Source: Rhodocyclaceae bacterium
Lineage (GTDB): Bacteria; Pseudomonadota; Gammaproteobacteria; Burkholderiales; Rhodocyclaceae
DNA length: 64,000 nt
NCBI GenBank assembly: GCA_024709955.1
Contig: JANJVS010000172.1
Span: forward strand, 33,314 to 97,313
Direction of reading: 5' to 3'
Made by a program: the position numbers and the translations under genes. This document shows, one piece after another, positions 56,539-60,817 of this stretch; positions within the stretch are counted from its first letter, which is position 1; each line of letters opens with the position of its first letter. Under the pieces are notes generated by a model. The model searched no databases, was not told the DNA's origin, and saw nothing but the letters and a program-made list of their open reading frames with translations.

Positions 56539-57884
56539 GCAACGCCGCGCGCGTATTGGTCGTCGACGACGAGGCCGACATCCGCGAACTGCTGGACATG
56601 ACGCTGGCGCGCATGGGCCTCGCATGCGATTGCGCCGCCAGCGTGGCGGAAGCCAAGCAGTACCTCGCCGACCATGTCTATCAGCTTTGCCTGACCGACA
56701 TGCGCATGCCCGACGGCGACGGTCTGTCGCTGGTGCAGCATATCGGCGGCCATCACCCCACCCTGCCGGTCGCCGTGATCACGGCGCACGGCAGCACGGA
56801 GAACGCCGTCGCCGCGCTCAAGGCCGGCGCTTTCGACTATCTCTCCAAGCCCGTTTCCCTGGCCCAACTCCGCACCCTGGTCAAATCCGCGCTGACGCTG
56901 CCCGAGAAAAAGACCTGCGGGACGGCCCGCAGCCAGGATCTGCTCGGCAACTCGGCGCCCATGGCCCAGGTGCGCACCCTGATCGCCAAGGTCGCCCGCA
57001 GCGAGGCCCCCATCTATATTTCGGGCGAATCCGGCAGCGGCAAGGAACTCGCGGCGCGACTGATCCACCGGGAAAGCGTGCGCGGCGACAAGCCCTTCGT
57101 CGCGGTGAATTGCGGCGCGATTCCGGAAAACCTGATGGAAAGCGAGTTTTTCGGCTATCGCAAGGGCGCCTTCACCGGGGCGGAAACCGAGCGCGCCGGC
57201 TTCTTTCAAGCCGCCAACGACGGCACGCTGTTTCTCGACGAAGTCGCCGACCTGCCGCTGGCGATGCAGGTGAAGCTGTTGCGCGCCATCCAGGAAAAGC
57301 ATGTGCGACAGGTCGGCGCGACCGCTGAAGAGCCGGTCAATGTGCGCATCATCTGCGCCACGCATCAGGATCTGCGCCGCCTCGTCGAGGAGGGCAAATT
57401 CCGCCAGGACCTGTTCTTCCGCATCAATGTCATCGAGATTCGCATGCCGCCCCTGCGCGAATGCCGCGAGGACGTGCCGGACCTGGCGCACCGCATCCTC
57501 GAACGACTGACGGCCGGCAGCGGTTCCACCCCGCCGGCGCTCACGCGCCAGGCCCTCGCCGCCCTGCAGGATTACGCCTTTCCCGGCAACGTGCGCGAAC
57601 TGGAAAACATTCTCGAACGGGCGCTGGCGCTGCATGGCGATGGCGTCATCGAAGTGGCCGACCTCCAATTGCAGCCGGAAAAAGTCGGCGCTGGCGACAC
57701 GCTGGAATTCGGCGGCGGCCAGACCCTGCAGGACTTCCTTGACGAGCAGGAACGCCGCGCGATCCTCGATGCGCTGCAAAAAACCCGCTACAACCGCACC
57801 GCGGCGGCGCGCATTCTCGGCGTGACCTTCCGTTCGTTGCGCTACCGCATGGAGCGCCTCGGCCTGAATGACCGGGAAAGCTGA
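56502..57884 (+). CDS. pilR: Sigma54-dependent response regulator PilR
   Basis: Receiver VVDDE; GESGSGKE, ESEFFG..GAFTGA, PGNVREL; C-terminal HTH; follows pilS. Confidence 0.92.
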   Translation: MSRSPSRTADDLSNAARVLVVDDEADIRELLDMTLARMGLACDCAASVAEAKQYLADHVYQLCLTDMRMPDGDGLSLVQHIGGHHPTLPVAVITAHGSTENAVAALKAGAFDYLSKPVSLAQLRTLVKSALTLPEKKTCGTARSQDLLGNSAPMAQVRTLIAKVARSEAPIYISGESGSGKELAARLIHRESVRGDKPFVAVNCGAIPENLMESEFFGYRKGAFTGAETERAGFFQAANDGTLFLDEVADLPLAMQVKLLRAIQEKHVRQVGATAEEPVNVRIICATHQDLRRLVEEGKFRQDLFFRINVIEIRMPPLRECREDVPDLAHRILERLTAGSGSTPPALTRQALAALQDYAFPGNVRELENILERALALHGDGVIEVADLQLQPEKVGAGDTLEFGGGQTLQDFLDEQERRAILDALQKTRYNRTAAARILGVTFRSLRYRMERLGLNDRES

Positions 57885-57900
57885 CGCCAGACCGCCGCGG

Positions 57901-58443
57901 ATGCGGATCGATGCCGCCGGCTGGCTGAGCGATTGCACGCATATCGCCAGCCCCAATCATGACGCGCGGCCGGCCGACGCGGCGATCACCCTGGCCGTCA
58001 TTCACGCCATCAGCCTGCCGCCCGGCGAGTTTGGCGGCGGCGCGATCGCGGACCTATTCCTCAATCGCCTCGATCCCGCCGCTCATCCCTACTTCGCCGC
58101 CATCGCCGGCCAGCGCGTGTCCGCCCATTTCCTCATCCGTCGCGACGGCGGCCTGGTCCAGTTCGTTCCCTGCGCACGGCGCGCCTGGCATGCGGGCGCC
58201 TCCTGCTGGCGGGGGCGCGAGCGCTGCAACGACTTTTCGCTCGGCATCGAACTGGAGGGAGACGACCACAGCGACTTCGCCCCGGTGCAATATCTGACCC
58301 TGCGCGCATTACTCGACGTCCTGCGGCGGCACTACCCGATCGCGGCCATCGCAGGCCACGCCGACATCGCGCCCGGCCGCAAGACCGACCCGGGACCGCA
58401 CTTCGCGTGGCGGGAACTCGCGACGTCACTTGCCACCGCCTGA
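57901..58443 (+). CDS. ampD: 1,6-anhydro-N-acetylmuramyl-L-alanine amidase
   Basis: IHAISLPPGEF, VSAHFLIRRDG, AWHAG, NDFSLGIELEG, RKTDPG. Confidence 0.97.
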   Translation: MRIDAAGWLSDCTHIASPNHDARPADAAITLAVIHAISLPPGEFGGGAIADLFLNRLDPAAHPYFAAIAGQRVSAHFLIRRDGGLVQFVPCARRAWHAGASCWRGRERCNDFSLGIELEGDDHSDFAPVQYLTLRALLDVLRRHYPIAAIAGHADIAPGRKTDPGPHFAWRELATSLATA

Positions 58444-58507
58444 ACCGCGCCCACGTGGTTTCACTGCAACGCGAGTGAACCATGCCGCGTCGTCGATGCA
58501 ATTTATC

Positions 58508-58573
58508 TTGCATCGAAAAATGCGACCTACTACCATTAGTTCCCAAATGTCGTTGACCCACTATATCTAGTAG
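58508..58573 (+). promoter_or_regulatory. Sigma70 promoter overlapped by tandem NrdR-box-like sites
   Basis: TTGCAT(58508)-N17-TACCAT(58531). Box 1 CTACTACCATTAGTTC (58527), box 2 CCACTATATCTAGTAG (58558), 31 bp apart. Box 2 matches 12/16 of acaCwAtATaTwGtgt. Confidence 0.75.
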
Positions 58574-58607
58574 GTCGATGCTGTAAGGCAACCACTAAGG
58601 AAGGTGC

Positions 58608-58913
58608 ATGCAGGCAGACGTGGGCAGTAAGGCGAACGCACGAACCGAATCCCCGGATGGATTCGCCGCCATTGCTCCCCTTGCCGCCACTACCGGATCT
58701 TCCGCCAGCCAGCGGCCATTCGCGTTCCTTCTGGCCGCGCCGAACCCCATTTTTCCCGGCTTTCTCCGCCCCTCACAAATCCAAGGATGGGCCATGAAAG
58801 CGCATGAATTCATCGATTCCGGTCCGCCGGTGTTGCTGAATAATCCGTGCTGTTGTAGGCGGGTTGTTTGTAGTTCTTTCCTCAAACATGCAATGGAGGT
58901 TCACTATGGCTGA
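58608..58913 (+). pseudogene. Short ORF behind the NrdR operator, possible 5' remnant of a deleted ribonucleotide reductase gene
   Basis: Good RBS (AAGGAAGG) and ATG; low-complexity MQADVGSKANARTESPDGFAAIAPLAATTGSS start, then sequence that does not look protein-like; no RNR motifs. Confidence 0.4.
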
Positions 58914-59568
58914 AGAGAAGAAAGCCAAAAAACCGGCGGCGGTGAAGAAGGCTACTGCTGCTAAACCGGCTGCCAAAAAGGTTGCCGCTCCGAAGAAAGC
59001 TGCCGCTGCAAAGCCGGCCGCCAAGAAGGCTGCTGCACCGAAGAAGGCCGCTGCAAAACCGGCCGCCAAGAAGGCCGCCGCTCCGAAGAAGGCCGCTGCA
59101 AAGCCGGCCGCCAAGAAGGCCGCCGCTCCGAAGAAGGCCGCTGCAAAACCGGTCGCCAAGAAGGCCGCCGCTCCGAAGAAGGCCGCTGCAAAACCGGCCG
59201 CCAAGAAGGCCGCCGCTCCGAAGAAGGCCGCTGCAAAACCGGCCGTCAAGAAGGCCGCCGCTCCGAAGAAGGCCGCTGCAAAGCCGGTCGCCAAGAAGGC
59301 CGCCGCTCCGAAGAAGGCCGCTGCAAAACCGGTCGCCAAGAAGGCCGCTGCAAAACCGGCCGCCAAGCCGGTGGCGAAGAAGCCTGCCGCTGCAAAACCG
59401 GCCGCCAAAAAGGCCGCTGCCCCGAAAAAGGCTGCTGCTCCGAAGCCTGCCGCGGCACCCGCTGCGGCACCCGCTCCGGCGCCATCGACCGCTGCCGCGC
59501 CCGGTCTCAAGTCGTCGCTCAACCCGGCGGCTGCCTGGCCTTTCCCGACCGGCTCGCGCCCGTCCTGA
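58906..59568 (+). CDS. Histone H1-like Lys/Ala/Pro-rich nucleoid protein
   Basis: GGAGG RBS; PAAKKAAAPKKAAAK repeats; C-terminal LNPAAAWPFPT motif seen in betaproteobacterial H1-like proteins. Confidence 0.92.
   Translation: MAEEKKAKKPAAVKKATAAKPAAKKVAAPKKAAAAKPAAKKAAAPKKAAAKPAAKKAAAPKKAAAKPAAKKAAAPKKAAAKPVAKKAAAPKKAAAKPAAKKAAAPKKAAAKPAVKKAAAPKKAAAKPVAKKAAAPKKAAAKPVAKKAAAKPAAKPVAKKPAAAKPAAKKAAAPKKAAAPKPAAAPAAAPAPAPSTAAAPGLKSSLNPAAAWPFPTGSRPS
59014..59328 (+). repeat. Coding tandem repeat, 7 x 45 bp
   Basis: Unit about CCGGCCGCCAAGAAGGCCGCCGCTCCGAAGAAGGCCGCTGCAAAA, in frame in the H1-like gene. Confidence 0.93.
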
Positions 59569-59586
59569 TCGGCAGTACTCGGCACC

Positions 59587-59624
59587 AAGGCTGGAGACCG
59601 CTCGCGCGGTCGCCAGCCTTTTTT
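59587..59624 (+). terminator. Terminator after the H1-like gene
   Basis: AAGGCTGG..GACCG/CGGTC..CCAGCCTT-TTTT. Confidence 0.8.
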
Positions 59625-59653
59625 CCTTGTCAGGCACGCCGCCGCGGCATCCC

Positions 59654-60817
59654 TCAGCCGCGGCGGGCGAAAAACGCCTCCATGCGCGCCAGTCCCGCGG
59701 CAAGCTTTTCCACGCCCACCGTATAGGCAAAGCGCATGTGGCGCGCGGGATCGTTCGCGCCGAAATCCAGTCCCGGCGTGGCGGCCACGCCCGCATCTTC
59801 GATCAGGCGCTCCGCCAGGCCGAAGCTATCCTGGCCCAGGTCGCCGATGTCCGCATAGATGTAGAAAGCCCCCTGCGGCTCCGCGCCGATGCGGAAGCCG
59901 AGCTTGCGCAACCCCGGCAGCAGCAGGTCGCGGCGCGCGCGGAAGGCCGCGCGGCGCTCCTCGAGAATCTCCAGCGTCGCCGGCGCGAATGCGGCGAGCG
60001 CCGCATGCTGGGCCGGCGTCGAGGGGGCGATGTAGAGGTTCTGGGCAAGCTTCTCGACATTGCGCACCATGGCCGGCGGCACCACCAGCCAGCCGAGCCG
60101 CCAGCCGGTCATGCCGAAATACTTCGAGAAGCTGTTGATGACGACGATCTCGTCGGAGATTTCCAGCGCGGTACGGGCATCGCTGCCGTAGGTCAGGCCA
60201 TGGTAGATCTCATCGACGATCAGGTTGCCACCGCGCACGCGCACGGTCTCCCAGAGCGCGGCCAGTTGCGTCGGATCGATCAGGGTGCCGGTCGGATTGG
60301 CGGGCGAGGCGACCAGCAGCCCCTTGGTCTGCACCGTCCAGCCAGCGCCGACTTTTTCGGCCGTCGGCTGGAAGTTGGTCGCCGCATCGACGGCCAGCGC
60401 GCGCGGCACGCCTTCGAGCAGGCGCACGAAATGGCGGTTGCAAGGATAACCAGGGTCGGTGAGCAGCCATTCGTCGCCCGGGCTGATCAGCGCGCCGAGG
60501 GCAAGCAGCAACGCCCCCGAGGCGCCGGCGGTGACGACGATGCGGGCCGGATCGACGCTCACGCCGTAGCGGCTCGCGTAGAAGCCGGCGATCGCCTCGC
60601 GCAGCCGCGGCAGGCCCAGCGCATGGGTATAGAACACCTGGCCGCCGGCGATGAAACGCTGCGCCGCCTCGATGATCGGCTGCGGGGTCGGGAAGTCGGG
60701 CTCGCCGACCTCCATGTGGACGATCTCGCGGCCGGCGGCTTCGAGGGCCTTGGCCTTGGCCATGAGTTCCATGACGTGGAAGGGCCCGATCTCGGCCATG
60801 CGCGCGGCGATGTTCAT
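59654..60817 (-). CDS. PLP-dependent aminotransferase, class I/II
   Basis: EVGEPDF, SPANPTG, VDEIY, SFSKYFGMTGWRLG. Confidence 0.95.
   Translation of the reverse strand: MNIAARMAEIGPFHVMELMAKAKALEAAGREIVHMEVGEPDFPTPQPIIEAAQRFIAGGQVFYTHALGLPRLREAIAGFYASRYGVSVDPARIVVTAGASGALLLALGALISPGDEWLLTDPGYPCNRHFVRLLEGVPRALAVDAATNFQPTAEKVGAGWTVQTKGLLVASPANPTGTLIDPTQLAALWETVRVRGGNLIVDEIYHGLTYGSDARTALEISDEIVVINSFSKYFGMTGWRLGWLVVPPAMVRNVEKLAQNLYIAPSTPAQHAALAAFAPATLEILEERRAAFRARRDLLLPGLRKLGFRIGAEPQGAFYIYADIGDLGQDSFGLAERLIEDAGVAATPGLDFGANDPARHMRFAYTVGVEKLAAGLARMEAFFARRG

Follow-up and report, generated by a model that had tools for sequence, protein, structure and literature searches.

A tandem NrdR operator with no ribonucleotide reductase gene behind it was identified between ampD and a histone H1-like gene in the window, the whole 64,000-nucleotide stretch of DNA that was analyzed. 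Alignment with related genomes showed that the operator is orthologous to nrdA control regions, that nrdAB was deleted from behind it, and that both the operator and the open frame following it have been under selection. The interpretation that we favor, and to which we would give rather more than an even chance, is that the NrdR-controlled promoter has been exapted and now drives the H1-like gene by way of a translated spacer. It was reached from the sequences of uncultured MAGs, without transcript or binding data; NrdR binding, activity of the promoter, read-through into the H1-like gene, and the roles of Rho and of translational coupling are all inferred. An earlier note on this DNA had presented two alternatives, a deletion that left the operator behind and NrdR control of the H1-like gene. 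These are successive steps and not rivals, the second of which is inferred and has not been demonstrated. The features of the interval are as follows.

57868-58443, plus strand: ampD, encoding N-acetylmuramoyl-L-alanine amidase (PF01510, 105 bits), the conserved left neighbor of nrdA in relatives.
58455-58472, no strand assigned: conserved element CGTGGTTTCACTGCAACG (GTGG-N8-CAACG), seen as conserved columns in a 30-genome alignment.
58508-58513, plus strand: -35 hexamer TTGCAT of the former nrdA promoter (P1), read from the sequence and invariant in 30/30 genus genomes.
58527-58542, plus strand: NrdR box 1, CTACTACCATTAGTTC, overlapping the -10, with C4, A6, T11, and G13 present (14.6 bits).
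58531-58536, plus strand: -10 hexamer TACCAT of P1, after a 17-nt spacer from TTGCAT.
58543-58557, plus strand: 15-bp linker between the NrdR boxes, fixed in length and free in sequence.
58558-58573, plus strand: NrdR box 2, CCACTATATCTAGTAG, with six of the six key positions (26.1 bits).
58597-58610, plus strand: ribosome-binding site (RBS) AAGGAAGG (58597-58604) and the former nrdA ATG (58608-58610), with CAG as the next codon.
58608-58913, plus strand: leader open reading frame (ORF) of 101 codons, whose TGA (58911-58913) overlaps the H1-like start (ATGGCTGA).
58906-59568, plus strand: gene for a histone H1-like Lys/Ala/Pro-repeat DNA-binding protein of 220 amino acids (PF07382, HC2).
59589-59625, plus strand: GC-rich hairpin GGCTGG...CCAGCC followed by T7, read from the sequence and missed by a simple terminator scan.

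A functional NrdR site consists of two partially palindromic 16-bp boxes, with key positions C4, A6, A8, T9, T11, and G13, separated by a linker of 15 to 16 bp (PMC13584703). Both boxes are required for binding, while deviations at the box center are tolerated (PMC13584703). Box 1 of the window carries four of the six key positions; its A8/T9 center reads CA because the -10 lies there. P1 itself is weak, matching the sigma-70 consensus at 7 of 12 positions, and was not flagged by a simple promoter scan of the window. The locus thus meets the description of an NrdR operator in its boxes, its 15-bp linker, and the placement of box 1 over the -10 of a predicted, unmapped promoter, and fails it in that no reductase operon follows, there being no nrd gene in 58574-59568. 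The promoter TTGCAT-N17-TACCAT, the tandem boxes with the first over the -10, the RBS, and the ATG were all found as the earlier note had described them, and the distance of about 460 bp that it gave between ampD and the H1-like gene was measured as 462 bp (ampD stop at 58441-58443, H1-like ATG at 58906 and not 58907), with no nrd gene inside. An Rfam search of 57000-60500 at a permissive threshold returned nothing relevant. The conserved element CGTGGTTTCACTGCAACG lies approximately 40 bp 5' of the -35, and g17, another genus of the family, has a similar sequence, GTGGTAAGCGCACAACG. The element does not fit sigma-54 spacing and may be a site at which another regulator acted on the former nrdA promoter.

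Using a weight matrix trained on the nrdA operators of seven other families and on the nrdJ boxes of this genus, the whole 3.5-Mb assembly was scanned. As a tandem site the orphan operator scored 40.7 bits, compared with 20.8 bits for the genome's own nrdJ site and 12.5 bits for the next best. Box 2 ties with an nrdJ box as the top single box genome-wide, while the score of box 1 was helped by orthologous sites within the training set. The boxes therefore stand far above chance, and the pair proposed from the bare sequence is the top tandem NrdR site of the genome. Further single NrdR-like boxes (at C148:5407 and C18:5519) were set aside, being neither tandem nor in related contexts.

The earlier note had also suggested that nrd genes be sought elsewhere in the genome. 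The sole large-subunit reductase gene proved to be a class II nrdJ on a separate contig, C197 (TIGR02504, 593 bits), and profile searches of the genome identified no nrdB and no nrdD. The first box of nrdJ, CTACTATATGTAGTGG, is strong and fused to a TATAAA -10 (G000 contig C197:33124-33171, L001); the second, CCACTAGGATTTAATC, located 32 bp downstream of the first, is poor, which is why the nrdJ operator is weaker than the orphan one. A box similar to that of the orphan site, CTACTAnAnnTAGTGG, occurs in the nrdJ promoters of the genus. The cognate regulator gene, nrdR, lies on C37 (TIGR00244, 191 bits) and was found in 34 of 38 genus genomes. Any form of nrdB was present in only 4 of the 19 genus genomes searched, as a divergent type located elsewhere, and the four further genera sampled within the family all lack a classical nrdB, with only the divergent type in one of them (E of ~1e-60); classical nrdB was present in 10 of 12 genomes from other families of the order. 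The divergent small-subunit gene (Pfam E of about 1e-60, compared with 1e-90 for the classical gene) was observed in G003, G007, G008, and G010 of the genus and in G166 of genus g15, on contigs other than that of ampD, and may represent a secondarily acquired class I reductase.

In eight of 10 order-level relatives, genes for the same histidine kinase and sigma-54 regulator together with ampD lie upstream of nrdAB, and in seven of these eight ampD is directly 5' of the nrdA control region, with one extra gene between them in L016. The ampD-nrdA spacers of the seven share one arrangement: they contain TTGCAT or TTGACA followed by N17, a box 1 that reads ACTAsAATTAGT and covers the -10, a box 2 that reads CACwAyATnTwGTGG and lies 30 to 32 bp further on, an RBS, and ATGCA(A/G). 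The corresponding segment of the window is collinear with these nrdA control regions of seven related families through its own ATGCAG. In three families an H1-like gene ending AAWPFP..RP, the same C terminus as that of the window gene, is next after nrdB, so that the order ampD-nrdA-nrdB-H1-like, which the earlier note had put forward, does exist in relatives. Taken together, the comparisons showed that the inferred ancestral order was ampD-nrdA-nrdB-H1-like and that the deletion took nrdAB downstream of the nrdA start codon. The operator was left behind, as promoter, boxes, RBS, and ATGCAG remain collinear with those of the relatives' nrdA; this part of the earlier note's inference is shown.

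With a genome of 237 contigs assembled as a MAG, a mis-join that removed nrdAB from the contig had to be considered. The nrdAB genes were, however, absent from the ampD junction in 38/38 genus genomes, single-contig assemblies included, with the junction identical in each. In addition, no nrdB was found anywhere in the genome, and four other sampled genera are without classical nrdB. The second genus, g17, has the same junction, composed of TTGCAA, CCACTAGAATTAGTCG, ATACTACATCTAGTAG, an RBS, and ATGCAA. Since one junction is shared by all 38 genus genomes and by a second genus, there is no mis-join, an explanation that we regard as barely conceivable, and the loss predates the split of the genera.

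To determine mean pairwise identity and the number of invariant columns, the spacers of 30 genus genomes, in which the DNA from ampD to H1 is approximately 70% identical, were aligned, with the following result.

-35: identity 1.00, 6/6 columns invariant.
Promoter spacer: identity 0.59, 0/13 columns invariant.
Box 1: identity 0.83, 8/16 columns invariant.
Linker: identity 0.59, 0/15 columns invariant, always 15 long.
Box 2: identity 0.91, 13/16 columns invariant.
RBS to ATGCAGG: identity 0.78, 5/17 columns invariant.
Flanks: identity 0.42-0.46, 0/56 and 2/24 columns invariant.
Following 170 nt: identity 0.37, 3/170 columns invariant.

The GCATGC around the former nrdA start is invariant across the genus, and a linker of fixed length and free sequence has been described for functional NrdR sites (PMC13584703). 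Judged by its aligned columns, the footprint is the one expected of a functional NrdR-controlled promoter under strong purifying selection, and it excludes a decaying scar. The proposal that the boxes are a nonfunctional scar of the nrdAB deletion that has not yet decayed draws on the region being demonstrably a remnant of that loss. The loss, however, predates a genus in which ampD DNA is only ~70% identical, as well as a second genus, and neighboring noncoding DNA has fallen to 37 to 46% identity, whereas the -35 and boxes stand at 83 to 100%; we consider a scar very improbable.

The frame that opens at the former nrdA ATG was analyzed across the same 30 genomes. Its variable part (ATG to approximately position 58785) is rich in indels and contains no stops in 1,586 codons, where 44.6 were expected from base composition; in the same part the other plus-strand frames hold 42 and 33 stops and the minus-strand frames 13, 49, and 19. 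In 24 of the 30 genomes this part has a length divisible by 3. In 23 of the 30 the frame remains open to the TGA that overlaps the H1-like start, with nine length classes that are all 1 mod 3. Termination at the H1-like start is favored and not obligatory, since six of the 30 genomes, and genus g17 as well, close the frame approximately 60 to 100 nt before the H1-like ATG, inside a conserved block, and in L042 it comprises only 15 codons after a large deletion (~140 nt) that left the operator intact. A subclade formed by L024, L028, and L042 (G037, G040, and G038) has frames of 55 or 15 codons with the operator, -35, RBS, and ATG unchanged; its members are natural variants that could separate the role of the operator from that of the spacer.

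Selection for an open frame is shown by these counts, and the simplest reading of the codon data is that the act of translation, and not its product, has been selected. The pN/pS of the variable part is about 1 (range, 0.6 to 3.3) without an excess of third-position changes, the GC3 of the leader ORF is 0.645 compared with 0.82 in neighboring genes, and no Pfam or NCBIfam family was matched. A public protein search returned 82 clusters of 68 to 108 residues, called hypothetical proteins where named, and the variants displayed in the alignment all end in VxYG, mostly as MEVHYG. It could be argued from these clusters, from the conserved ORF length and invariant start, and from the apparent conservation of the C-terminal 45 residues that P1 has been kept for a functional small protein of 101 residues, with the H1-like gene independent of P1. 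We find this decidedly unlikely. Set against it are the pN/pS of about 1 in the variable half, the lack of a family, and a GC3 (0.65) below that of real genes (0.82). The conserved half varies to about the same extent at all three codon positions (20/18/19 variable columns, compared with 3/3/10 in the first H1-like codons), and changes within a hairpin there replace residues (CCC to LRS to RRSN) yet still allow a stem of 4 to 7 bp to form.

Other candidates for the frame were rejected. A remnant of a yfaE-like ferredoxin, suggested by a PCCC motif, was dismissed, as relatives have no such gene between nrdB and the H1-like gene and no codon-position signature was present. The frame is not the shadow of a minus-strand ORF of 96 amino acids (58595-58885), as all three minus-strand frames hold 13 to 49 stops. 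A seemingly covarying hairpin approximately 50 nt into the leader was discarded, with fold energies no better than those of shuffled sequences (z of about 0).

C-rich, G-poor composition favors Rho loading on untranslated RNA. By sliding composition, one stretch of the leader RNA is of this kind.

58640-58780, plus strand: C-rich, G-poor leader RNA stretch, 44 to 46% C and 19 to 23% G.

We infer that it resembles a Rho loading site.

Between the variable part of the frame and the H1-like gene lies a nearly invariant region, designated block 3, with the following features.

58785-58905, plus strand: block 3, identity 0.86, 63/121 columns invariant.
58808-58841, plus strand: long hairpin (alifold), in which all changes preserve pairing (G-U to A-U).
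58839-58844, plus strand: -10-like AATAAT within TGAATAAT (58837-58844), which is invariant in the genus.
58845-58862, plus strand: short hairpin with a 4- to 7-bp stem and a U-rich tail behind it, reaching 58881.
58877-58881, plus strand: UUUCC, pairing with the Shine-Dalgarno (SD) sequence GGAGG at 58895-58899 in the alifold consensus.

The even distribution of variable columns over codon positions in block 3 indicates that the constraint is on DNA or RNA and not on protein. Genus g17 shares block 3 in part, with TGGATAATCCGTGCT in the place of TGAATAAT. Here the H1-like gene likely has a proximal promoter of its own as well, which has not been shown; the gene could then be expressed without P1, and NrdR control via P1 would be an added input and not the sole one. 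In L017, a distant relative where nrdAB is intact, TGAATAATCCG followed by a hairpin and a T-rich run occurs at a similar distance from the H1-like start, after two clear nrdB terminators. A comparison of block 3 with the spacers between nrdB and the H1-like gene in L016, L017, and L022 did not establish homology, as only the 11-mer TGAATAATCCG in L017 was recovered (z of 2.6), which is suggestive and not significant. A simple terminator scan predicted no plus-strand site between P1 and the H1-like ATG; P1 transcripts could end short of the H1-like gene at the short hairpin and its U-rich tail (58845-58881).

These features bear on the possibility that the operator and promoter have been kept for a regulatory effect other than making H1-like mRNA, whether as a high-affinity decoy drawing NrdR away from the weaker nrdJ site, as a roadblock to read-through from ampD, or through interference of P1 with the proximal promoter. 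The resemblance of block 3 to an independent promoter and 5' untranslated region (UTR), the hairpin with a U-rich tail ahead of the H1-like start, and the far better score of the orphan tandem site compared with that of nrdJ (40.7 versus 20.8 bits) are all compatible with such a role. A decoy or roadblock, however, needs no -35, RBS, ATG, or open frame, all of which are conserved, and the stop-free frame implies ribosomes on P1 transcripts across the leader, to the H1-like start in 23 of 30 genomes. We therefore judge a role of this kind unlikely, if still to be kept in mind, and retain expression of the H1-like gene from P1 as the preferred interpretation. The conserved operator, -35, RBS, and ATG, together with the stop-free frame that runs to the H1-like start, argue that NrdR now controls this gene.

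The H1-like protein matched PF07382 with 64 bits (cutoff, 40) and NF038053 (hist_H1_lk_Burk) with 69.5 bits (cutoff, 80). Within the gene, 58960-59400 is composed of 45-bp tandem units, AKKAAAPKKAAAKPA, that cross-match one another, and the length of the protein varies because the number of units differs between genomes. The hairpin at 59589-59625, behind the H1-like gene, is likely the terminator of the unit. Genera g1 and g17 have both the operator and the H1-like gene, and neither was found in g14 to g16, with the search for H1-like proteins in other genera scoring only 150 of roughly 640 to 1,170 candidates; in g15 and g16 ampD abuts a convergent aminotransferase gene, and in g14 a different gene follows ampD. 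PF07382 was too insensitive for sister genera, missing a known copy in G331. The co-occurrence of operator and H1-like gene fits a functional unit, and one deletion of two neighbors would give the same pattern.

The proposed history begins with an ancestor that had the order ampD-nrdA-nrdB-H1-like, from which a deletion removed nrdA past its first codons as well as nrdB. P1, both boxes, the RBS, and the start codon were thereby left approximately 300 bp upstream of the H1-like gene, in a cell now dependent on the class II enzyme NrdJ, and selection then retained this orphan control region, as we propose in the role of a working NrdR-repressed promoter. NrdR carrying ATP and dATP is predicted to bind both boxes and cover the -10; when dNTPs are scarce, NrdR would leave the DNA and P1 would fire. 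Ribosomes would load at the old nrdA RBS and ATG and translate a spacer of approximately 73 to 109 codons whose amino acid sequence is irrelevant, and this translation may protect the C-rich leader from Rho termination. In most species it would also deliver ribosomes to the TGA overlapping the H1-like ATG, where the SD can otherwise pair with UUUCC; a ribosome that terminates at this stop codon would free the SD and could reinitiate. In this way the supply of H1-like protein would follow the dNTP sensor, probably in addition to input from the proximal promoter in block 3. Whether NrdR directly controls an H1-like nucleoid protein, such that the supply of a packaging protein follows the demand for DNA precursors as a bacterial counterpart of replication-coupled histone synthesis, we regard as evenly balanced. 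With nrdA-nrdB-H1-like ancestral in several betaproteobacterial families, a link between NrdR and the H1-like gene may, on this comparative evidence, be older than the deletion.

To our knowledge, NrdR is regarded as regulating almost nothing but reductase genes, and in the literature searched no report was found that links NrdR to a nucleoid protein or an H1-like gene. The locus represents a canonical tandem NrdR operator that selection has kept for a very long time without a reductase behind it. If the proposed control is true, the locus would clearly illustrate how a regulon can acquire a new target when its original one is lost. It would also point to dNTP sensing being physiologically connected to nucleoid proteins, a connection that became apparent only with the loss of the reductase genes lying between the operator and its target; cultivable relatives still have the nrdAB-H1-like arrangement. 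The spacer frame offers a clean natural example of selection for translating and not for the protein. Frames of this kind routinely enter annotation as hypothetical proteins, as did the 82 public clusters of this leader ORF.

Compared with leader ORFs in which translation matters, through coupling or protection from Rho, the window shares a stop-free unconstrained frame, the ATGGCTGA overlap, an SD that can be sequestered, and a C-rich leader. It differs from them in that its 73 to 109 codons are unusually long, derive from the start of a deleted enzyme gene, and include no evident regulatory codons. The histone H1-like proteins of Betaproteobacteria, to which BpH1 of Bordetella belongs, and of Chlamydia (HC2) have in common with the window protein their Lys/Ala/Pro pentapeptide repeats and, in three families, a position after nrdB. 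Relative to hist_H1_lk_Burk, the window protein falls below the NCBIfam equivalog cutoff (69.5 versus 80 bits). Like the nrdAB operators of proteobacteria, the window operator has two 16-bp boxes with the key positions and 15 bp between them; box 1 also lies over the -10 in the nrd promoters of Pseudomonas aeruginosa (PMC4409342), with the same layout described in PMC13584703. Unlike those operators, it has no reductase gene after it, the first real gene downstream being H1-like, and by score it surpasses the operator of nrdJ, the sole reductase gene left in the genome. Action of NrdR on a gene other than a reductase gene has been shown experimentally in one case, topA of P. aeruginosa, which has a single box and is activated (PMC4409342). 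NrdR and a chromosome-structure gene are common to topA and the window; in contrast to topA, the window has a full tandem operator in a repressing position, which arose by loss of its original target.
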